From contig CBDBFU010000021.1 in assembly GCA_965205025.1 (NCBI GenBank), forward strand, positions 32,001-96,000: 64,000 nucleotides of DNA, read 5' to 3'. Made by a program: the position numbers and the translations under genes. The notes under the pieces were generated by a model that ran no database searches, was not told where the DNA came from, and saw only the letters and a list, made by a program, of their open reading frames with translations. This document shows, piece after piece, positions 5,116 to 50,394 of this stretch; within the stretch, counting starts at the first letter, position 1, and each line of letters opens with the position of its first letter. Origin of the DNA: Candidatus Poribacteria bacterium. Lineage in GTDB: Bacteria > Poribacteria > WGA-4E > WGA-3G.

Positions 5116-6282
5116 TTATATCGCAGTTCTCAGAATTTCTGCAGCCTGATTAATAACCTTTAATTTTTGTATTGCTATTTCTGTTGTATTAACTGGTCTA
5201 TCAGCAAATGTTCCAAACCCACAATCTGGATTAAGGTATATCTGTTCAGGGATACGATGTTTCAATACTGATTTTACTTTATCGACAATAAACTCTACAG
5301 TTTCAACATGTGTTGTTCTTGGATCAACCACACCAAGACCAATTTCTTTATCTGATGGTAGTTCAGATAAGACATCAATGCTACCTGCTCGTTCTGTCGC
5401 ATATTCCAATACGAATTGTTTTATCTTCATCTGACTAAAAAATGGAATTAAAAGATCATAAGATCCGCGAAGAAGTACATCTTCTTGTTGACTCCAATTT
5501 CCTCTACACACATGTATTGCAGTCTTGATTTTATCATCGAATCCATCAATAACACGATTAATGAGTTCTACAGCAAAATTGAGTTCTTCTTCTGGACTAC
5601 TCTTTTCAGAAAGCGCAGCACACATAAATGTATGGGTTTCATGTGGACCTGTAAATGCTACCTCTGTCAATACAGGTTCATCAAATTGTACATAATCACA
5701 TCCAGCATCTTTTAACTCTTGTAATTCCTGTCGTAGGATACTGACAACATCATCTCCTAATGATTCTTTATCTGGGTAAAAGTCATACGATAACTTCTTC
5801 ACCCACATAGACCTTGTAAGTAGGTATGGACCAGGGAGTGTAACTTTTATTGGCTTGGAGGTATGTTGTTTTAAGAATAAATAGTCATTCAACACAAGAT
5901 GTGTTGTTCGTTCTAATTTTCCATCAACCACGGGATTCTTTAGAGCAAAAGCCGGTACATCAAGGGCATTGAGTAATTGTTCAAACGCAGCTTTGTCCTC
6001 AACATAATCCAGCATTTCTGCCAGAGTCATTAACCGAATTCCATCAATACATCCAGTAATAAATGAGTAGAAATTATCTCTGCGTTGTTCACCATCACTG
6101 ACAATATCTACTCCATTATCTTCTTGTATTTTAAGACTTTCTAATACAGCATCATCAGCGATAGTATTAAAATCTTGGTCACTTATACGACCTTTTCCTC
6201 TATCTCTAAGTGCCCGTGACACAGTCTTTGACCGTGGCATACTTCCAACTACAGTTACGGGAAATTGTGGTAAGTTATTCAT
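5116..6282 (-). CDS. Cobalamin-independent methionine synthase II (single-barrel MetE-like) family protein
   Basis: VVGSMPR, SDGEQRR, QFDEP, Zn ligands HVCRGN, LEYA and NPDCG; only 388 aa, no N-terminal barrel. Confidence 0.9.
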   Translation of the reverse strand: MNNLPQFPVTVVGSMPRSKTVSRALRDRGKGRISDQDFNTIADDAVLESLKIQEDNGVDIVSDGEQRRDNFYSFITGCIDGIRLMTLAEMLDYVEDKAAFEQLLNALDVPAFALKNPVVDGKLERTTHLVLNDYLFLKQHTSKPIKVTLPGPYLLTRSMWVKKLSYDFYPDKESLGDDVVSILRQELQELKDAGCDYVQFDEPVLTEVAFTGPHETHTFMCAALSEKSSPEEELNFAVELINRVIDGFDDKIKTAIHVCRGNWSQQEDVLLRGSYDLLIPFFSQMKIKQFVLEYATERAGSIDVLSELPSDKEIGLGVVDPRTTHVETVEFIVDKVKSVLKHRIPEQIYLNPDCGFGTFADRPVNTTEIAIQKLKVINQAAEILRTAI

Positions 6283-6416
6283 TGTTGATTTACCTTTCTC
6301 AAGTCAGCTATTAAATTGTATTCTATACGAGTTCCACTGGAAAGTTTGTGGTACAAGGTAGTAATTTGGATTATTCTAATTAAAAATGTTAAATGTTATG
6401 ATTCTGTTGCATAACT

Positions 6417-6638
6417 TATTGATGAGAGTTGAGATCTTCAATGATCTTTTCAAAAATTACAACCTGCTGCAGTAGTTGCACCAAATACTGCAGCAGGTTG
6501 GACAATCTCACATAATCGCCACCTATCTATTCCTTCTTGGTTGAGTATGTTTTCCAGATCTGGCATGCTACTTGATGCAAACCCCAATCCCTTCTCCTTC
6601 TGAGTAACCCTGATTGTCTTATATTCATACTTTTGCAT
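6417..6638 (-). pseudogene. DUF4177 domain protein, apparent frameshift near the 3' end
   Basis: MQKYEYK...LNQEG...W; the typical tail VVIFEK continues in another frame from about 6464. Confidence 0.6.
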
Positions 6639-6656
6639 CTGGTGCTCCGTTTTGGA

Positions 6657-7145
6657 TTATGATAAGTAAGGACGTCTGTCTATATAGTAAACAAGATGTC
6701 CTTGATTTTCACTAAAACCGATTGAGTCATAAAATGATTCTTCACAGTTTTCCACGATGTAACCTGTGATGAATGTTGCTCCCATTTTCTCTAATTCATT
6801 GATGAGCACTTTCCCTAATTTATAACCAACTTGTTCTTCATCAGCTTCAATCAGTGATCCGTTGTTGTATTTTGATTTACTCCCCTGATACTGCACATCT
6901 ATAGAAAATTCCATAATATGAGCAGAAAGTCCATCAAAAGTTGCGCGGGCAAGTCCAATAATTTCTGTCTGAATATAAGCGGCAATTATGAGATGTTGAT
7001 GTTCCAGTATTCGCGAGGCAACCTCTTTCCCAAATCCTACTTCACATATATTATTCTTTTCATAAAAAGTGAATAGTTCATCAGGAGTGATATTGGGATT
7101 TACAATGACTTCTATTGAGTCTTTAATTTTGTTTGTCTTATCCAT
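6657..7145 (-). CDS. GNAT-like acetyltransferase-fold protein
   Basis: IIGLARA...DVQYQG...LGKVLI...FYDSIGF pattern. Confidence 0.65.
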   Translation of the reverse strand: MDKTNKIKDSIEVIVNPNITPDELFTFYEKNNICEVGFGKEVASRILEHQHLIIAAYIQTEIIGLARATFDGLSAHIMEFSIDVQYQGSKSKYNNGSLIEADEEQVGYKLGKVLINELEKMGATFITGYIVENCEESFYDSIGFSENQGHLVYYIDRRPYLS

Positions 7146-7204
7146 TTGACATTTTTAGTTACATACAATAACTGTAATAATTATAGTTTATATCAACAGA
7201 AGGG

Positions 7205-8998
7205 TTAAAGTGTCTTGTAATAATCGCGTATTTTATACGATATTAATTGTCTTCTTTCGTTTAAAAATTCTTCATAATTATCTGCAGTAATGGATTCCAT
7301 TTCATCAGGAATACAATGTGATTTCAGATTTTCACGTAATTGTTCTAAATCTCTAATACCACCTAAACGTAATCTACCGTTTTGACATTGTTCAATTACT
7401 TCAGAGAAGTAATTTTTTGGTGGTTTTGCTTTAATCGCTATATTAATTTCACTCTGCATGACGACATAGTTTGCAATTTGATTGTAGCTGCTTTGCGTAT
7501 AACCATGATTCTGTAAATACTTCTTTGGAAAGACATGGTGGATATTTGACTGACCTTCAAGTAGAACTTGCACTGTTAAATCCTTTGAGAGGAATCCTTT
7601 ATCATTTCTCTTAACTTGACTCGCAAGAAAAACATTAAAATATGGACTACTTGCTACAGAGGTTTTTAATCTTAAAGGGAAACCAACATTCCAGAATGTA
7701 TCGGAGAGATCTGAATTTTCAATATCTCTTAAAACAGATACTACACCTGATTCATTAATTAATCGAATGTCCGAATCAAACACTGTTTCAGAAGATCCAG
7801 TATACCTTGCAGTTAACACAGACATTACAAACCAGCGTCTAACAAATGACTCAATTTTTGCATCATCTACTTTTTGTTTTCGTAGTGTCAAATATAATAT
7901 ATACGCAAAATTGGCAGTGTTCTTGGATTTTATCATTGAGGAAGTTATAAAACCAGCAGAACGTAAAATCATTATGAATCGTTTAAAATTTGTCTCATTC
8001 ATAAAATGAAATACACTGTTGTTAAGTCTTTCAAATGAATCTTCTGCTATTGAATCTTCAAAACTGCGAGTTTCAAAATTACGTCCTGATAATAAAGCAA
8101 CTAAGTCACTTAACCTTCCTCTTTGAAATTCAGTGGTAAATGTAACTCTAAGCATATCAGTATAAGAAGGATCATATAGGTCTTCTCTCTCATGTCTAAG
8201 CCATTTCATAGTATTAAAGTATTCAGTGTTATTGAAGCTTTCATCTTGACTTAGGACATTGTAAGATTCTGGAGAAACTGCAAGATTGCAAAAGTAATCA
8301 ATACACTTTCGGAGTAAATGACCATCATATCGGTCATTAGCCGCCATCTTAGACATAACAAAATCCGAAGTATTCAGAGAAACCCCTTTTGAATTAATTC
8401 GAACGAAAATTTCAGTTACAGTATCGATTTTTAATTCAGACTTTAATTCAATTAAACCTATATTATTAAATAGTATATTCTTAAGACGTAAAATTCGATC
8501 ATCAATTATCTCTGTTTTCATCTCTGGATTAACTAAACAATAGTTATCAACTAATTTTCGCATACTTGTTTCTGGTTTAAATACTTCAGAAATATCTTGT
8601 ATCCATTCTTGATTTTTTTGAATAGCGGCGTTTCTTACTTCAAAGATCTTATCTCCAGGATGAAAAGAAATTATAATTCGTTTCTGCGTGTAGTTTTTGT
8701 TAATAATATGTTTACCAGATAATGCTGCAAGAAGCGCAATTACACGTTGTTGTCCATCAATAAGTATTTTCTTACCAATAGACTTCTCTCCATCTTTTAG
8801 TCTAATATTTGGTGTGATCCATGTTATTAGGTAACCTACTGGATATCCTGAATAGAGGGAATCAATAAAATCACGGACTTGAGCAGAATTCCATACAAAA
8901 GGTCGTTGAATCTCTGGAATAGCGATTTCTTCTGAGTCATCCCATGATAATAAATTTTGAATTGTAGTTTGTTTTACCTCGTAAAGTTGTTTTTCCAT
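7205..8998 (-). CDS. DUF262 + C-terminal HNH (GmrSD/SspE-like) nuclease
   Basis: IPEIQRPFVW, LIDGQQR and FVRINSKG (DUF262); HHVFPK...NQIAN (DUF1524/HNH-like). Confidence 0.88.
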   Translation of the reverse strand: MEKQLYEVKQTTIQNLLSWDDSEEIAIPEIQRPFVWNSAQVRDFIDSLYSGYPVGYLITWITPNIRLKDGEKSIGKKILIDGQQRVIALLAALSGKHIINKNYTQKRIIISFHPGDKIFEVRNAAIQKNQEWIQDISEVFKPETSMRKLVDNYCLVNPEMKTEIIDDRILRLKNILFNNIGLIELKSELKIDTVTEIFVRINSKGVSLNTSDFVMSKMAANDRYDGHLLRKCIDYFCNLAVSPESYNVLSQDESFNNTEYFNTMKWLRHEREDLYDPSYTDMLRVTFTTEFQRGRLSDLVALLSGRNFETRSFEDSIAEDSFERLNNSVFHFMNETNFKRFIMILRSAGFITSSMIKSKNTANFAYILYLTLRKQKVDDAKIESFVRRWFVMSVLTARYTGSSETVFDSDIRLINESGVVSVLRDIENSDLSDTFWNVGFPLRLKTSVASSPYFNVFLASQVKRNDKGFLSKDLTVQVLLEGQSNIHHVFPKKYLQNHGYTQSSYNQIANYVVMQSEINIAIKAKPPKNYFSEVIEQCQNGRLRLGGIRDLEQLRENLKSHCIPDEMESITADNYEEFLNERRQLISYKIRDYYKTL

Positions 8999-9141
8999 AT
9001 TCTCTCCTTGGTAATTCCATAATTCTCAATAAACTGATATAAGAATACCATTATATCAACCAAGTATGTTGATATCTAATTTGGCTATTTAAGTACCAAC
9101 GTTTTTTGACCAAATTTAGAAAATCATGTATATAATTTACA

Positions 9142-9489
9142 CTAATATACTGATGATACATTATTATTGAGAATTGTCATTATCTTTGGATTAAATTTCT
9201 TGAAAGCAATTAATTCTGCTGCCTTTAATCTGTTCTTATTTTTAAAACTATCATGCAACCACCAATGAATTGCTGAGATTTTCTCAGGGTTCAATGATGT
9301 CGCTGAAGCCCCCATTGTTACACTGCTATCTTGTCTAATAGTATGTTGTATTATACGATTATGTAAATTTGTACTTGAACCAACATAAACTACTTTACCT
9401 TTATTATCATATATTACATAAATTCCAGGCTTGTTACTACTCACTTCACTTAGTGTAAAGTCAATAATATTATCCCTACTATTCTTCAT
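9142..9489 (-). CDS. GIY-YIG nuclease family protein
   Basis: PGIYVIY...VYVGSSTNLHNRIIQH...AAE. Confidence 0.8.
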   Translation of the reverse strand: MKNSRDNIIDFTLSEVSSNKPGIYVIYDNKGKVVYVGSSTNLHNRIIQHTIRQDSSVTMGASATSLNPEKISAIHWWLHDSFKNKNRLKAAELIAFKKFNPKIMTILNNNVSSVY

Positions 9490-9498
9490 TCCAAATCC

Positions 9499-10239
9499 TT
9501 ATATCACACGTAATTCCACATTCATATTTGTGTCTTGTGTAAGTGTATTTGTAACTGGGGAAGCACCCAATGTCTCCTGCCATAGTTTTTCTAATACTTC
9601 ATCATCCGCATCAGAGGCGACATAGAATGTACCAGTAATCTCTTTAAAACCACTATGACCATTTTGTTCTGTACCTAAAAACACAAAGATGTTATCTATC
9701 TGACCACTTAATGATATTTCTAATTCATCAATTTCAATTTTTTGTTGTGATGCTCTAATCTGAAACCCCATTGCTAAACAAGAACCGAGTGCCCCAAGGA
9801 CATATTCTACTGCACTTGGTGCTGCATCACGGACATCGAAACTTGCTGGTTGTCCAACTGACCATGAATGATTTCTACAAAATACTTTAGCTTGTAATCC
9901 ACCATCCCAATGAATACGCGTCTGCCATCGATAATCACGTGCTTGTTCAAAAGCAGTATTGGCATCTTGTTCATCTTCACCACGTTGAACAAAGTACTTA
10001 TTGTGTTCTGTAACCGACCTCCACCCGAGATAAGGATTTTTTGTCATTCTACACCATGCCGGCAGATCTTCTTTTACACTTATCTCAGTACTCCTAATTT
10101 CAAGCACTTCACCATCTGGAACTTGTTCCATTGATTTCCGAATTAGAAGAAGTAAGCCGGAACCACAATCAAGATTTCCACCTTCACAAATGTGTTGAGT
10201 GTTCAGTGAGTCTGGGGCAATTATATCTTCTTCACGCAT
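9499..10239 (-). CDS. TusA-domain / OsmC-domain fusion protein
   Basis: N-half GGNLDCGSG...GEVLEIRSTE...DLPAWC (TusA/SirA fold); C-half PSAVEYVLGALGSC...SPVTNTL (OsmC). Confidence 0.85.
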   Translation of the reverse strand: MREEDIIAPDSLNTQHICEGGNLDCGSGLLLLIRKSMEQVPDGEVLEIRSTEISVKEDLPAWCRMTKNPYLGWRSVTEHNKYFVQRGEDEQDANTAFEQARDYRWQTRIHWDGGLQAKVFCRNHSWSVGQPASFDVRDAAPSAVEYVLGALGSCLAMGFQIRASQQKIEIDELEISLSGQIDNIFVFLGTEQNGHSGFKEITGTFYVASDADDEVLEKLWQETLGASPVTNTLTQDTNMNVELRVI

Positions 10240-10510
10240 AGATTTATTCCTGAGAGGTGTCTTAAAAAAGTCTAAAATTTATTGAATATGAATACTGGGG
10301 TCGAAGTGCAATTTCGGTAGGAGTAAATGCTGAATGTTATCAATATAAAGAAGGTAACCCTCCCCATAGACATATTCTATAATAGCATAGTAGACTATAG
10401 TTAGTGATCCTATACCAAGTAGGAAGGGAAACCTTATACTTATAATTGGGATTCAACTGATCCCAATTGGATGTTTCTGCATCTATTAGCAGGAACTCCT
10501 TTTCCAGTTG

Positions 10511-10870
10511 TCAATAGGTAATAGAGGATCCACCGGTGGTAAGAAATTCAACTGCTTTTGCCCCACCAACAATTAAGGCTCCGTCTACAAGATTATTTTC
10601 ATCAAGGTTACGCTTTTTAAAACAGGGTGAACAAACCCAAATTATACCACCAACCTCAACAAAGTCATCCATCAGTTGTTTTAAGGGTGCAAAACCATCT
10701 TCATGAATATCATCTGAATACCCATTCTGACTTAGGTGAACACCTTCAGTACTGAGAAAAATTACAGTTTCAATACCTGAGGCAACAGAAGCATTCGCAA
10801 CGACAAAACCGACAGTTGCTTTATCAGTATTGTCTTGTGCGTGCGTAATGCTTATCATCAACTTCGACAT
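10511..10870 (-). CDS. DsrE/DsrF-like family protein
   Basis: Likely start MSKLMISITH at 10870, overlapping the TusA stop (TAATG); IFLSTEGV and WVCSPC motifs. Confidence 0.85.
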   Translation of the reverse strand: MSKLMISITHAQDNTDKATVGFVVANASVASGIETVIFLSTEGVHLSQNGYSDDIHEDGFAPLKQLMDDFVEVGGIIWVCSPCFKKRNLDENNLVDGALIVGGAKAVEFLTTGGSSITY

Positions 10871-11133
10871 TAGGAAGCTGCTCCTTTCTTTATAAGAAAA
10901 TAGGCATTGTCTTCTCCGCAACAATCCGCGAGAAGTTCATTGCCTATCATATTACACCATGCTGCTATATCCACAGGTGCTCCTGGGTCAGTAGCATGGA
11001 CTTGTACGATTTGTCCTGGTTCCATAGATCTCATTGATTTGAGCAATGCTATGATAAGGTCTCCACACCCAAGATCACCAAAATCAAATTCGGCATCTGG
11101 GTTGATACCAGGAAGAATTATATTATTTAACAT
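10870..11133 (-). CDS. Sulfurtransferase TusA family protein
   Basis: DFGDLGCG...MEPGQIVQVHATDPGAPVDIAAWCNMIGNELL. Confidence 0.88.
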   Translation of the reverse strand: MLNNIILPGINPDAEFDFGDLGCGDLIIALLKSMRSMEPGQIVQVHATDPGAPVDIAAWCNMIGNELLADCCGEDNAYFLIKKGAAS

Positions 11134-11183
11134 AATTCAATCATATCATATCAAAGCCATTTTGTCAACGATTACAAAGATAC

Positions 11184-12357
11184 GGGTGTGCAAAGTTTTT
11201 AGCATTAATTTACGTAATAGAAACGGATCAAATACATGTTCTTAATATAAACTGTATCAAATTCTAATTTCACACTTTTTCCATGAGACTTAAAATAAAA
11301 TGAAGAAAACATAAACATATAACAACTAACACATATATATCACAATAACATAAAATAAATTAAAAATATTTGTCATAATGCAAATAAAATGATACAATAC
11401 TATATCGTTCACTAATTATATACAAAAGCTAACACATTACTTGGAAGATACGAAATATTGTTTATGCCGTGAGAGTGTAACTCTCTTCTAATTATTTTGG
11501 CTAATTATTTACGCTTCTAAACTTTATGCCATATTCAACCAAATCCACTATCTGGAAAATAGGAAAATCTATGTTAGAATTACAACTAAAACATTCAGAA
11601 TTATCGCCTTTTGAGAATCGTTCTCAAAACATATATAGCCAGAATCTAAATAAGCAGATTCAGAGGAATATCAATGCGAATTCAACCGAATATTTTTTTA
11701 GTTTTTCAAATTTTAAAATTTTACTCCGATTAATCAAATCCTTTGTTATCCCAATCCACAACAGGGTTTTCGGCTCATTAAAAAGTAATTTCTTAAAAAG
11801 CAACTCAAAAAACTTGAAAAACTTAAATAACTCAAAAAACTTAAAATTAGACCGACTTCAAACAATACAGACTATCATACACACCAGAAAACTACACTGT
11901 ATCTCATTACTACGAAACGTCCATACAGATATAATTCTCTTCATAGAATTGGTGTTTCCCAATCCGTTAGTTCAAAATATAGAAAATACTAAGATCAAAG
12001 AATCCTCTAAATCTATGATTTATGAAATATGTTCCAATACCTTGTCAAAATCACAGGATAAGATATTTAACATTCAAACGATTCCAAATCAATGTACAAA
12101 AAGAAAAGTAAAAGACACAAAATTCAACCCCCACTTTATAATTTTTACAAATTCTTGTAACCTTAAAAAGTGGCTCTAAACCCAGTGTAGTACTGATGGG
12201 ATAGAGGTTTTACCAATGTTACACCATGTAACGAAAAGTGTAACTTTACTCAACATATTGATAGCATAAATATTACTATTGTGAAAAATGAAAAACTGTA
12301 AACTATAACCTAATAACCCTATGATCGTGATATTCATGCCAAAAACTTTACACACCC
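11184..12357. mobile_element. Putative non-autonomous element bounded by terminal inverted repeats
   Basis: Left end gggtgtgcaaagtttttagcat and right end atgccaaaaactttacacaccc are imperfect inverted repeats; a similar end lies at 5017-5036; no transposase. Confidence 0.55.
11526..12179 (+). CDS. Orphan low-complexity ORF (N/K/S/I-rich), coding status uncertain
   Basis: 217 open codons in very AT-rich DNA, but no recognisable domain; overlaps repeat motifs. Confidence 0.3.
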   Translation: MPYSTKSTIWKIGKSMLELQLKHSELSPFENRSQNIYSQNLNKQIQRNINANSTEYFFSFSNFKILLRLIKSFVIPIHNRVFGSLKSNFLKSNSKNLKNLNNSKNLKLDRLQTIQTIIHTRKLHCISLLRNVHTDIILFIELVFPNPLVQNIENTKIKESSKSMIYEICSNTLSKSQDKIFNIQTIPNQCTKRKVKDTKFNPHFIIFTNSCNLKKWL

Positions 12358-12473
12358 TTTTGAGAATTATAGTTTATTCTTCACTACTATAATTTTGACA
12401 ATTCTATTTCAGAGGGGTAACTAAGAATCTAATGATAAGTCTATTTTTTGGAGTTTTGTATATCAAAAATACC

Positions 12474-12541
12474 GTCCTCCAGCGGGGTACTATGTGTCTA
12501 TTGAAAACAATATCGGAACAGTCTGGCACTCCAGCGGAGTG
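12474..12541. repeat. REP-like hairpin doublet
   Basis: cctccagcgggg and gcactccagcggagtg about 50 bp apart. Confidence 0.7.
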
Positions 12542-12608
12542 ATATGTGCCAATACACTTCGTATGAAAAACATATTAGTACTTTAAAACACACTTAGGTT
12601 ATAGTGTA

Positions 12609-12726
12609 ATTAACGTATGTGATTCACGGAGAATTGGTCTACTTTAAATTATAAACCCTTATAGAATAAGGGTTCGTAAAAATGCTCCGTGAAAGTTTCC
12701 GTGAATGGAATTGTGGATTTCTCAAT
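12609..12726. repeat. ~118-bp dispersed repeat (inverted copy at 53700-53817)
   Basis: Reverse complement aligns with few mismatches; central aaacccttatagaataagggtt palindrome. Confidence 0.85.
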
Positions 12727-12802
12727 GGTATATTAACAAATACAATAGTTTAGACAATTCTTATCCATGTTGAACAAATCAGGAGAATCCTACAAAAATA
12801 TC

Positions 12803-13055
12803 GCACTCAGGCGGAGTGCTAAGTCTATAGAATACATATCAGTACATTCTCGCACTCCAGCGGAGTTCTATGTCTATAGAATACCTATTGAAGTAAATTG
12901 ACTTTTCCGAATGCTAATAATGTAAACCAATCAAATAGAATTGGTATAATTTTGAGTTGTCTGAGTCGCGGATTACGCGGAGGAGAGGGAAATATAAGAG
13001 TCGGGAATCGGAGTTCCCTCCTACAGAAGAGACTAATGAATAAATTGATGTCTAT
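12803..13055. repeat. REP-like doublet plus GTAG-type hairpin and MITE ends
   Basis: gcactcaggcggagtgc, gcactccagcggagttc, gtcgggaatcggagttccctcctac and taaattgatgtcta. Confidence 0.7.
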
Positions 13056-13148
13056 GTTGACAAAACTATACACACTCACGATCTGAAGATGTGGGTTAGG
13101 TGTCATACATAACCAATTTTAATCACTAAATTTATTGAGAATGTAAGC

Positions 13149-30846: not shown

Positions 30847-33800
30847 TTAATATCGTGTTATTGTTTCATGTAGATTTAAAATCACACGCGCTACGGAAGT
30901 CCATGCAGCATGTTCTGGGGTATCTATACCTTGAATTTGTGGTGCCTCGCCAGTAGATATGAGTTGATTTGCTGATTCTGGATTCTGAGCAAATTGCATT
31001 TTGTGCTTTTCAAACATTCCAGTAATCAGTTCTAATTCGTTAGGATTTGGTAATCGAGATAGAGATTGTTTATATGCCCAATTAATACGATCCTCTGGTG
31101 TTTCACCACCCTCTTTAATGATTCGAGCTGCATACATTCGAGCTGCTTCAACATAGGTTGGATCATTAAGTAATGTCAATGCTTGCATAGGCGTATTAGA
31201 TGAAGCTCGTTCTGCAGTACATTCTTGTCTACTTGGGGCATCAAATGCCATCATACTTGGATGAAGGAATGTTCGCTGCCAATGTGTGTATAAACCTCGT
31301 CGATATTGACTTTCACCTTTATCATGTACATATTTACGTTTTGGGAAGTTCAGGTTTGAGTAATATCCTACAGGTTGATAGGGTCTGACACTTGGACCTC
31401 CAATTTTATCTTCAAGTAAACCACTGAGTAATAATGCATTGTCTCTAACAATTTCAGCATCTAAACGCCAGTTAGATTGACGTGCAATGAGTCGATTGTA
31501 TGGATCTTTTTCCTGCAAAACATTATTGTGTTTTGAAGATTGACGATACGCATTTGAAGAAACAAGTAATTTTACCATGTGCTTAACATTCCACCCGCTT
31601 TCCATGAATTCAACTGCTAACCAATCAAGAAGTTCGGAATGTACAGGTGGTTCACCTTGAGCTCCAAGGTCATCAAGAACACGAGAAATACCAGTTCCAA
31701 AATAGAGTGCCCATAGACGATTAACAAATGTACGTGCTGTTAGAGGATTCTCTCTTGAAACAACCCATTTAGCAAGATCCAGTCGTGTAGAACGTCTGTT
31801 ATTTATACCGAGATCACCCATGAATTCAGGTATCATAGGATCAACTATATCCCCTGAATCGTCTAACCAATTACCTCTCGGTAGAATCCGTGTAGTACGA
31901 GGTTGAACAGAAACAGTCGTTAGAGAATATGGACTTTGTGCCCTTATCTCCGCTTTCCTTTTTTCTAATGTAGCAATCTCATTTCGGATTCCATCCAGCG
32001 CAGGTGCGATGGTCTTATAGTAATCTTCAATCTGTTTTCTTTGGTTTGTTGTTCTAACGAATGGATCAACCTGTATTGCTTTTATGACATTTGCATCATG
32101 TGAGTTTTTTGTAACGAAACCGAGTGTTGTTGTAATACCTGCGATATCCCAATAGGCTTTTCCACCAAACTGTGTGAATGCCATACCATTTAGAACACTA
32201 CCTGTATTTAGACCTACAATCTCAGGATCAACTTCAAGCCGAACCCATTCACCCAGTTTCGGAAGTTCCCCCATCGGTTTATGTGCAGGCGTGTCATTCC
32301 CAATTTCTCCATAGGTGATTTTGTCTTCACCCCAGAATGCACGATGATCCCAATTGCCGTCATTCCATTGAAGCATAATTGTTTTGGGTGGGTTTTCAGG
32401 ATCTAACCAGACATAAGCATACAGTTTATCACCATCATTTAAAGTGAATTTTCTATTCGCATTATGGAAGCTATGTTGTACAAGTTGATCTGGATTTGCT
32501 GTTTGAAGTCGTGAATATTTCTTACTGAAGACAGGAGCTTCAGTTTTTTCAACAAAGTTCCATTTGCCATCAGTTCTACCGCCATTAGATTGTACATCGT
32601 CAACCCAAGCGAAATCTGCAGGATCAGTTGAGGAAAGGAGTGGTTTAAGTTCATCTTCCCACTTTTTCTGTTCAGACTGTAATCCTGGGGATGACAAATC
32701 AAAAACCTTTCGTAATCTAATCAAATCATCATCAATTTTATCTAATTCAGATTGTTGTTCAGGAGTAGGTAGCATCACAACTGGATCCCACTTACTTCCG
32801 CCACGATATACTCCTGGACCTTCAACATCAGCAAAAAACGCTGCAAAACTATAGAAGTCTTTAGCGGTATATGGATCAAATTTATGGTCGTGACATTGTG
32901 CGCAGCCGAGGGTTGCACCTAACCAGACGGATGCAGTGGTTCGTACACGGTCAGCAGCATATATTGTTAGGTATTCTTTCGCTTGTGCACCCCCTTCCGC
33001 AGTAGTTTGTATTAGTCTGTTATATCCAGATGCAACCTTTTGATCCGGCGTAGCGTTAGGCAGGAGATCTCCCGCTAAATTCTCTATAGTAAATTGGTTA
33101 AATGGCATATTTTCATTGAATGCATTAATTACATAATCTCTATAGGGCCAGACACTAACATTTTCATCGGAATGGTATCCACTTGTATCAGCATATCGAA
33201 CAAGGTCTAACCAGTAAATCGCCATTTTTTCACCAAACTGTGGTTTTGTAAGTAAGCGATTAACCAATTCTTCATAGGCTTGAGGACGTTTATCCCTTAT
33301 AAATTGCTCTACTTCTCCAGATGGTGGTAATAATCCTGTTAAATCAAAATATAATCTACGTATAAGTGTTCGTTTATCAGCTTGGGTTGATGGTGTAAGT
33401 GCTTCATTTTCTAAATTACTGAGAATGAAGTTATCTATAGGATTGTGTATCCAATCAGTATTTTGTACTTCAGGAGGATCAATTCGTTGAGGAGGGTTAT
33501 ATGCCCAATGTTCTTCCCATTCTGCCCCTTCTGCAATCCACTGTATTATGGTATCAATCTGTTCTTGGGTAGGTTGTCGATTTTGAGATTGAGGTGGCAT
33601 TCTTGTATCAAGATTTTCATGTGTGATTCGTAATACCAATTCACTGTTTTCTGGTTCTCCAGGAACAATAATTGGATAGCCGCTTGGTTCAGAGAATGCT
33701 CCTTCTTTAATGTCAAGTCGTAAGTCTGCTTGTCGTGTGGCTGGGTCAGGACCGTGGCATGCAAAACATTTATCAGACAAGATGGGTAGAACATCTCTGT

Positions 33801-50152: not shown

Positions 50153-50226
50153 TGGGTGGTACAGGACTTGAACCTGTGACCTCTTGCATGTCAAGCAAAC
50201 GCTCTAGCCACCTGAGCTAACCACCC
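50153..50226 (-). tRNA. tRNA-Val(GAC)
   Basis: GGGTGGTTAGCTCAG...TTGACAT...GGTTCAAGTCC...ACCACCCA; CCA not encoded. Confidence 0.95.
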
Positions 50227-50240
50227 ACAAATAAAGGAAT

Positions 50241-50315
50241 TGGAGGTGGCGGTCGGAATTGAACCGACGAATAAGAGTTTTGCAGACTCCTGCCTTACCA
50301 CTTGGCTACGCCACC
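50241..50315 (-). tRNA. tRNA-Cys(GCA)
   Basis: GGTGGCGTAGCCAAGTGGTAAGGC...CTGCAAA...GGTTCAATTCC...TCCA. Confidence 0.95.
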
Positions 50316-50319
50316 AGGA

Positions 50320-50394
50320 TGGAGCGGGAGACGAGATTTGAACTCGCGACTTCCACCTTGGCAAGGTGGAGCTCTACCACTGAGCTACTCCCGC
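50320..50394 (-). tRNA. tRNA-Gly(GCC)
   Basis: GCGGGAGTAGCTCAGTGGTAGAGC...TTGCCAA...GTTCAAATC...TCCA. Confidence 0.95.

Follow-up and report, generated by a model that had tools for sequence, protein, structure and literature searches.

A conserved gene set joining TusA-, DsrE- and OsmC-type cysteine proteins to a MetE-like zinc enzyme in Candidatus Poribacteria and other bacteria

The DNA analyzed here, referred to below as the window, is a stretch of 64,000 nucleotides (positions 32,001 to 96,000, forward strand, of contig CBDBFU010000021.1, assembly GCA_965205025.1) from a metagenome-assembled genome (MAG) of Candidatus Poribacteria. Its minus strand carries four co-oriented open reading frames (ORFs) that are the subject of this report. 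They code for TusA1 (10870-11133, 87 aa), a DsrE-like protein (10511-10870, 119 aa from the start MSKLMIS), a TusA2-OsmC fusion protein (9499-10239, 246 aa) and a MetE-like single-barrel zinc enzyme (5116-6282, 388 aa). The spacer between the dsrE and fusion genes measures 271 bp, and the fusion protein is 81-93% identical to those of the nearest loci. The fusion and MetE-like genes are separated by 3216 bp, filled by four genes coding for GIY-YIG nuclease-like, GmrSD-like, GNAT-like and DUF4177 proteins. A first-pass annotation had described the four genes as sharing one orientation, the TusA1 stop as overlapping the DsrE start, and the proteins as carrying the motifs DLGCG, NLDCG, CSPC and TFMCA. 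The ORF positions bear out the common orientation, the overlap reads TAATG with one base common to both codons, and all four motifs are present in the window proteins (CSPC as VCSPC).

Homologs of the fusion protein were numerous, with 911 matches at E ≤ 1e-3 and identities of 61-72% across phyla. Eighty loci with fusion relatives were fetched, one genome per species, and homologs of all window genes were placed in them by tblastn. In the non-Poribacteria loci with a full-length fusion, the MetE-like gene was located downstream on the same strand in 17 of 21, and the gap was 250 bp or less in 14 of these 17. Three of the other four loci end at a contig edge, and L045 has the gene elsewhere in its genome. 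The TusA1, DsrE, fusion and MetE-like genes stand side by side in Brocadia, Abditibacteriales, Chthonomonadales, Nitrospinota, Armatimonas and several proteobacterial MAGs, and Entotheonellaceae are a further group with the MetE-like gene downstream. In this arrangement, termed variant A, cross-phylum identities were 69-86% for DsrE, 61-72% for the fusion and 62-76% for the MetE-like enzyme. An all-against-all comparison of the ORFs in 39 non-Poribacteria loci returned these four as the only conserved families around the cassette, and 35 of these loci had a cassette-type TusA1 gene upstream of the DsrE gene. Linkage of MetE-like homologs to TusA, OsmC and DsrE genes had been named beforehand as the point on which the first-pass annotation would stand or fall; it holds, both by downstream position (17/21) and by gene fusion in the second arrangement described below (12/12).

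In the Poribacteria, 32 of 43 loci had the MetE-like gene downstream in the same orientation, at most 10 kb away, with gaps ranging from 84 to 8845 bp. It was not found there in the remaining 11, in 8 of which the full 10 kb of sequence was covered. Among the 43 loci, the interval contained a GNAT-like gene in 14, a DUF4177 gene in 13, a GmrSD-like gene in 2 and a GIY-YIG gene in 1, while GNAT-like and DUF4177 homologs were absent from this interval in the loci of other phyla. In Poribacteria, this interval seems to attract insertions as a hot spot, and the GNAT-like ORF and DUF4177 gene may, from their distribution, be a lineage-specific addition to the module. In addition, the four-gene block is inverted as one unit between unchanged flanks in seven Poribacteria loci (L014, L016, L021, L023, L028, L032, and L041), with DUF362 and a 291-aa ORF on one side and DUF4432 and a 632-aa ORF on the other. 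Because of the synteny across phyla, the fusion of TusA2 to the MetE-like barrel, the lack of any other conserved neighbor and the inversion as a block, TusA1, the DsrE-like protein, TusA2-OsmC and the MetE-like enzyme very probably form one functional unit. The best explanation for the window is that the module was pulled apart there by later insertions.

Two other arrangements were identified. Variant B comprises 16 more distant loci (Burkholderiales, Planctomycetaceae, Chitinophagaceae, and others) in which the third gene lacks the OsmC part, and in 12 of 12 full-length loci TusA2 is fused to the N-terminus of the MetE-like barrel in a single ORF of 503-540 aa. Three of the other four loci end at a contig edge, and L072 gave no clear assignment. 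The TusA2 motif of variant B, GGDLDCGNGLLLLIRK...EDLPAWCRMTKNEL, is nearly identical to that of the window TusA2. An AlphaFold2 (AF2) model of the natural fusion, built from 8 sequences, had a predicted local distance difference test score (pLDDT) of 70, a predicted template modeling score (pTM) of 0.67 and a disordered linker at residues 91-113. This natural fusion is strong evidence that TusA2 and the MetE-like barrel act together. Variant C was found in two small Pseudomonadota genomes of 1.8-2.0 Mb (G705, contig C3, loci L083/L086; G561, contig C1, loci L084/L087). They code for the same FMC-type enzyme (RSFMCAALSEK, 45-46% identity), with a gene for a cytoplasmic-looking Phosphonate-bd domain protein upstream and a start-overlapping gene for a 154-aa OsmC-like protein downstream. 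The constant element across the variants is the enzyme with its extra cysteine, and the cysteine-protein partners vary. In three Burkholderiales loci (L067 at 7391-9967, L073, and L078), an ATP-binding cassette (ABC) transporter of the PhnD/PhnE/PhnC type lies between DsrE and the TusA2-MetE-like fusion; its binding protein, presumably for an oxyanion, scored below the PhnD equivalog cut-off (159 vs. 261 bits). A 620-aa protein call, P0139, that appeared to join TusA2, OsmC and MetE-like parts was not counted, as parts of it read as out-of-frame translation.

The MetE-like enzyme matched PF01717 with 122 bits over residues 7-381, while PF08267 matched a 60-residue stretch only (145-207, 29 bits). 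No methionine-synthase equivalog of NCBIfam reached its cut-off, the best being PRK04326 (203 vs. 406 bits), and the ESM Atlas returned generic methionine-synthase clusters only. The closest solved sequences were MesD (PDB 3RPD, 86.5 bits), 1YPX and the C-terminal barrel of MetE. The AF2 model of the enzyme (27 sequences) is a single barrel with pLDDT 86 and pTM 0.89. In Foldseek, it matched the Thermotoga maritima MetE barrel 1T7L with a query TM-score (TMq) of 0.76 (E 1.8e-24) and 3RPD with a target TM-score (TMt) of 0.82, at identities of 18-23%. The first-pass annotation had stated that the enzyme keeps its zinc ligands and has an extra TFMCA segment, and both points extend to the family. 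The zinc ligands H257, C259, E293 and C354 align to those of MesD 3RPD and T. maritima MetE. The residues of the homocysteine-binding triad, S14 (GSxPR), E65 (DGEQRR) and D201 (FDEP), align to GS, DGEQ and FDEP of 3RPD. With C221 added, this makes eight positions, all of them invariant across the 27 sequences aligned. In Price 2021 (PMC7857596), the criteria for a core methionine synthase are the zinc ligands equivalent to Escherichia coli MetE H641, C643, E665 and C726 and the homocysteine-binding residues equivalent to S433, E484 and D599. The cassette enzyme agrees with the residue and single-barrel criteria given there for a core (folate-independent) methionine synthase, and, from these residues, it probably binds a homocysteine- or methionine-type amino acid.

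Two features are specific to the family: a segment around ALDVPA and a loop at residues 211-229 (5596-5652) with an invariant FMC221, which reads TFMC221AAL in the window. The loop is absent from 3RPD and 1YPX in the alignments. Residues 213-226, within this loop, are the only stretch of the otherwise confident AF2 model with a pLDDT below 50, so the model fits a mobile element. As the loop directly follows the D201-bearing strand, we infer a place for it on the barrel's catalytic face. A distant MetE-like relative, P0175 in the representative library, is 736 aa long and has an apparent intein-like insertion in its barrel.

The residue at position 221 also stands out in a protein-level search of 1.84 billion representatives. 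Three truncated representatives end just before codon 221 (P0137 and P0211 at ...RRTFM, P0192 at ...SRSFY), and P0270 corresponds to the C-terminal half and begins at L224. The P0137 cluster has 33 members; of 15 members listed, 13 have a length of exactly 220 aa, on contigs of up to 159 kb from several sources. Because gene calls break exactly there, as callers do at an in-frame UGA, these proteins suggest that position 221 is sometimes a selenocysteine in some lineages. No in-frame TGA was found at the conserved cysteines in the 80 loci. A metagenome scan for F-M-TGA-x-A-L...E-L..A..L.N gave 0 matches with a pattern that is too strict for distant relatives; its cysteine form matches 60 of the 80 loci and requires N242, which is missing in at least one distant relative. 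A sample of 401 Pseudomonadota genomes gave 3 cassette-type matches, none with an internal stop. The window genome has a selD gene with an in-frame TGA (G000:C4:104148-105074, minus strand, 364 bits) and a selenocysteine tRNA (tRNA-Sec) predicted by ARAGORN, from which we conclude that this poribacterium decodes selenocysteine. In general, a selenocysteine/cysteine pair at one position marks a catalytic redox residue. By this rule, if position 221 is a selenocysteine in relatives, C221 would be a redox-active catalytic residue.

TusA and DsrE family members are established persulfide carriers, and the proteins encoded beside the enzyme keep cysteines at the corresponding sites. TusA1 scored above the cut-off of PF01206 (35.2 vs. 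28.6 bits) and below that of the NCBIfam TusA model PRK00299 (42.5 vs. 78 bits). Its active-site motif is DLGC23GD, and its second conserved cysteine is C60 (AWC); the G-C-G and the AWC cysteine are invariant in an alignment of 31 sequences. The DsrE-like protein belongs to PF02635 (47.5 vs. 22.7 bits), and its CSPC motif (VC80SPC83) does not vary among 38 sequences. The family cysteine C80 is matched by that of the DsrE-like PDB entry 3MC3, while C83 is specific to this family and completes a CxxC pair. The TusA2 domain (approximately residues 1-95; 9955-10239) scored slightly below the PF01206 cut-off (26.5 vs. 28.6 bits). Its C25, in NLDC25GSG, aligns in a profile alignment with the CPGP cysteine of PDB 1PAV. 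Neither TusA domain has the canonical CPxP motif, which is replaced by CGDL in TusA1 and CGSG in TusA2, and the absence of the prolines is invariant in the family.

OsmC/Ohr peroxidases use two catalytic cysteines, one peroxidatic and one resolving. The OsmC-like domain of the fusion (approximately residues 100-246; 9499-9942) is a member of PF02566 (55.5 vs. 27.5 bits). It contains one cysteine, C154, and the second catalytic position is occupied by an invariant serine, S227, in ASPV. Its best PDB match, 2OPL, is likewise of the SPV type, and the NCBIfam model for OsmC-related (seleno)proteins gave a weak match (34.9 vs. 95 bits). The cassette domain thus resembles OsmC/Ohr in its fold and in the first, nucleophilic cysteine, and differs in the absent resolving cysteine and the fused TusA domain; judging from these residues, a classical two-cysteine peroxidase cycle within the domain would not be possible. 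Across 22 sequences of the fusion protein, C18, C25, C63 and C154 are invariant.

Several observations concern the DNA around the carrier genes. A two-hairpin element of about 55 nt (AAGGAGUUCCUGC...GCAG...GGGAUcaGUUGaAUCCC; 10445-10499, minus strand) directly follows the DsrE stop and is conserved in 18 of 18 aligned Poribacteria spacers. Its stems show covariation, from CUGC/GCAG to CUAC/GUAG in L014 and from GGGAU/AUCCC to GGAAU/AUUCC in L019, L024 and L026. The element lacks a T-run, matches nothing in Rfam, and could be a processing or stabilizing site between dsrE and the fusion gene. No riboswitch or leader was found upstream of the cassette in the window or in 7 loci, and a T-box in L050 was assigned to ilvBN and not to the cassette. 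A third TusA match in the window genome (G000:C32:73552-73698, plus strand) is of a canonical CPFN type and unrelated to the cassette; its reading frame is broken by a frame shift or an in-frame TGA.

Based on the linkage, the fusions, the fold and the conserved residues observed above, we propose, with some reserve, that the carriers form a persulfide relay that ends at the zinc/homocysteine site of the enzyme, where the sulfur would be alkylated. The direction of transfer, the substrate and the product are the conjectural parts of this proposal. Sulfane sulfur would be handed on as a persulfide from TusA1 to DsrE to TusA2 and then from TusA2 to the C221 loop. The zinc site would activate the sulfur on this loop for alkyl transfer at the amino-acid site, and homocysteine or methionine might be made, or processed, from carrier-bound sulfur. 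The mixed disulfide left behind would be resolved by a second cysteine, which could be that of TusA2, C154 of OsmC or C221. The conserved residues would allow the zinc enzyme to alkylate sulfur borne by the carriers, as the first-pass annotation had suggested, and the gene set probably handles sulfur at a homocysteine-binding site in an undescribed way. In a more specific version, which we consider rather unlikely, the module would yield homocysteine, or methionine without that intermediate, with no need for pyridoxal 5'-phosphate (PLP) or folate. An activated four-carbon amino acid bound at the triad would then alkylate a zinc-activated protein persulfide on TusA2 or the C221 loop, and the mixed disulfide would be resolved by a partner cysteine or selenocysteine.

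The methionine context of Brocadia bears on this proposal. In 6 of 6 Brocadia genomes, one of them complete, the cassette enzyme was the only PF01717 match and PF02574 was not found; in three Brocadia genomes checked, PF01053 and PF01837 were not found either. Lawson et al. (PMC8027424) report that methionine was labeled in Kuenenia although its genome has no annotated pathway, and missing cystathionine enzymes in anammox MAGs are mentioned in another study (PMC6714388). Since no PF01053, PF01837 or PF02574 match was found and one PF01717 gene is the only candidate, the module could be part of the Brocadia-type anammox methionine pathway that the reported labeling implies and that has not been seen in the genomes.

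Several results weigh against the relay proposal. In the variant C genomes G705 and G561, no cassette-type TusA or DsrE gene was present within 8 kb on either side of the enzyme gene, and no DsrE homolog was found genome-wide with the window DsrE as the query, in a search without a positive control. Because variant C has the enzyme and an OsmC-like gene without TusA or DsrE, the TusA1/DsrE relay is not obligatory for the enzyme; as variant B lacks OsmC, no single partner is universal. The window genome codes for three MetH-type domains (PF02574), one PLP-dependent Cys/Met enzyme (PF01053) and a second core-MetE-like protein without the FMC loop. With the PF01053 and PF02574 enzymes present, this genome does not need the module to make methionine at a basic level. 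The cassette occurred in 5 of 61 sampled genomes of the Brocadia class. Of the 56 without it, 30 also lacked PF02574 and PF01717, and 21 lacked PF01053, so cassette presence does not cleanly complement the loss of canonical methionine enzymes. Because 30 of 56 cassette-less relatives lack both families too, the argument from Brocadia is weak, and the missing canonical genes are suggestive and not diagnostic. The stop at codon 221 is known from truncated protein calls and not from a TGA in DNA. Finally, an ordinary core methionine-synthase reaction would also fit the complete homocysteine triad. As the enzyme passes every sequence criterion of Price 2021 (PMC7857596) for a core synthase, sulfur insertion is not needed to explain its conserved residues.

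The last point leads to the alternative that survives best, which we regard as possible and on balance unlikely. The enzyme may be a fifth kind of core (folate-independent) methionine synthase that methylates homocysteine with an unidentified methyl donor. The cysteine proteins would then be accessory, as MesX is for MesD or corrinoid proteins are for MesA-C, and would either provide or renew the donor or hold the zinc-thiolate site and C221 in the reduced state. The invariant zinc ligands and S/E/D triad favor this view, as does MesD being the nearest solved single-barrel structure. The sole PF01717 match without PF02574 in all six Brocadia genomes and the reported anammox labeling point the same way, subject to the weakness of the Brocadia argument given above. 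MesD/MesX, as described in Price 2021 (PMC7857596; 3RPD), resembles the cassette enzyme in several respects: both have one barrel only, that of the MetE C-terminus, with no folate-binding barrel, and share the zinc ligands and the S/E/D triad; MesD also depends on an accessory family encoded next to it and often coexists with MetH. They differ in sequence (about 23% identity to 3RPD), in the extra loop with its invariant cysteine, which 3RPD lacks, and in the partners, which are TusA-, DsrE- and OsmC-type cysteine proteins in one case and MesX in the other. The MesD criteria in that text are at least about 55% identity to ACIAD3523 and adjacency to MesX (DUF1852). The cassette enzyme lies outside MesD by its identity to 3RPD, and no window neighbor matches DUF1852. 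PF08908 (MesX) was not found in 5 cassette genomes, in a search without a positive control.

Other observations speak against a core synthase of this kind. We know of no role for persulfide carriers in methyl transfer, and plain methyl transfer needs no redox-active cysteine or selenocysteine loop. No corrinoid, folate or methyl-donor gene was conserved near the cassette in the 39 non-Poribacteria loci, and no S-adenosylmethionine (SAM) or B12 riboswitch was present upstream in the window or in the 7 loci.

An improbable alternative is that the module is specific for selenium, with carriers that handle selenide or perselenide and an enzyme whose task is the synthesis or processing of a seleno-amino acid or the delivery of selenium. 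The halted gene calls at codon 221, the selD gene and tRNA-Sec of the window genome and the weak OsmC-related (seleno)protein match would agree with this. A selD match above the cut-off was present in 3 of 5 other cassette genomes; none was found in G004 and G005. In a Burkholderiales sample of 301 genomes, selD occurred in 8 of 10 cassette genomes compared with 230 of 301 overall, in tallies that include the unpublished genome G028 (not a cassette genome), and this is no enrichment. The absence of an in-frame TGA at the conserved cysteines of the 80 loci also argues against it, and a selenocysteine residue would indicate a redox catalyst and not a selenium substrate. A selenium-only role is not supported by these data.

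Another idea, for which the first-pass annotation had named detoxification, is that the module detoxifies or buffers reactive sulfur species or alkylating or oxidizing agents. OsmC-family proteins are thiol peroxidases. The OsmC-like and cysteine proteins would trap peroxide or persulfide, and the zinc enzyme would alkylate, for example methylate, the trapped sulfur for disposal. The OsmC-like partner does recur, fused in variant A and as a separate start-overlapping gene in variant C. However, the invariant α-amino-acid-binding triad is hard to reconcile with a disposal reaction, the OsmC domain lacks the second catalytic cysteine and the OsmC part is missing from variant B. Neither a stress regulator nor an efflux gene was conserved beside the cassette in the 39 non-Poribacteria loci, and we consider this role quite improbable. 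That the MetE-like gene is merely a functionally unrelated neighbor of the TusA-DsrE-fusion trio is hardly credible: the 3.2 kb and four genes between them in the window and the 11 of 43 Poribacteria loci without the gene downstream (8 of them with the full 10 kb) stand against cross-phylum adjacency, the fusion of TusA2 to the barrel and the loci where all four genes are inverted together, and the intervening genes differ among Poribacteria genomes and include a putative defense islet.

Known TusA/DsrE systems offer the closest parallel to the proposed relay. TusA-TusBCD, DsrEFH-DsrC and DsrE3-TusA are persulfide or thiosulfonate relays. As in the cassette, TusA- and DsrE-family proteins are encoded together there and keep their active-site cysteines. 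The cassette differs from them in the CG(D/S) motif instead of CPxP and in the added second cysteine of DsrE (CSPC). Its proposed acceptor is a MetE-fold zinc enzyme, whereas tRNA-thiolation, Dsr or sHdr proteins act downstream in the known relays, and no sulfur-oxidation genes were conserved near the cassette in the 39 non-Poribacteria loci. On the enzyme side, the C-terminal barrel of MetE is the best fold match (1T7L), and its zinc and homocysteine sites are kept; the cassette enzyme is half the size, lacks the N-terminal barrel and has an identity of 18-21%. Epoxyalkane:coenzyme M transferase, named in the first-pass annotation, is a zinc enzyme of the MetE family whose thiolate, activated by zinc, attacks a non-methyl carbon electrophile. 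Likened by description only, it is a precedent for non-methionine chemistry in the MetE fold. The cassette enzyme keeps an amino-acid-binding triad that the coenzyme M enzyme would not need.

Among open-access papers and bioRxiv, we found no paper on a TusA/DsrE/OsmC/MetE-like gene set, and the terms TusA, DsrE and OsmC are absent from Price 2021 (PMC7857596). The gene set is widely conserved yet unstudied. Should the carriers indeed deliver to the zinc site, the module would be the first TusA/DsrE persulfide relay that ends at a MetE-fold enzyme and a new way to build or process sulfur amino acids. A means of making methionine that needs no B12, folate or PLP would be relevant to the Poribacteria symbionts of sponges and to Brocadia in wastewater anammox, as the amino-acid dependencies of symbionts and slow-growing autotrophs shape community behavior. 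The module is compact, with 3-4 very highly conserved genes and natural fusion variants. Its carriage in Burkholderiales brings it into an order with many cultured and genetically tractable members, where the question is directly testable.

The four genes between the fusion and MetE-like genes of the window are all on the minus strand. They code for a GIY-YIG nuclease-like protein (9142-9489; PF01541, 34.3 bits), a GmrSD-like protein (7205-8998, 597 aa; PF03235, 106.4 bits), a weakly GNAT-like protein (6657-7145, 162 aa; Acetyltransf_10 at E = 0.017 only) and a DUF4177 protein (6450-6638; 27.9 bits). The GmrSD-like protein belongs to the candidate defense family HEC-05, having the N-terminal DUF262 domain (PF03235) and a match to the PADLOC profile PDLC04151 (100.8 bits). 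The guanine-cytosine (GC) content is about 0.31 across 7-9.5 kb, compared with about 0.36 in the surroundings. Because of the low GC content and the HEC-05 match, the GIY-YIG and GmrSD-like pair (7205-9489) looks like an inserted putative defense islet that does not belong to the cassette. Upstream of TusA1, the region 11134-13100 is AT-rich (GC 0.29-0.33), and its only ORF codes for a low-complexity protein of 217 aa on the plus strand without a family match. Further along, the GC content climbs abruptly between 18000 and 20000, from about 0.37 to 0.48-0.53, with no rRNA there by Rfam. The window contains three tRNA genes only, all located at 50153-50394.

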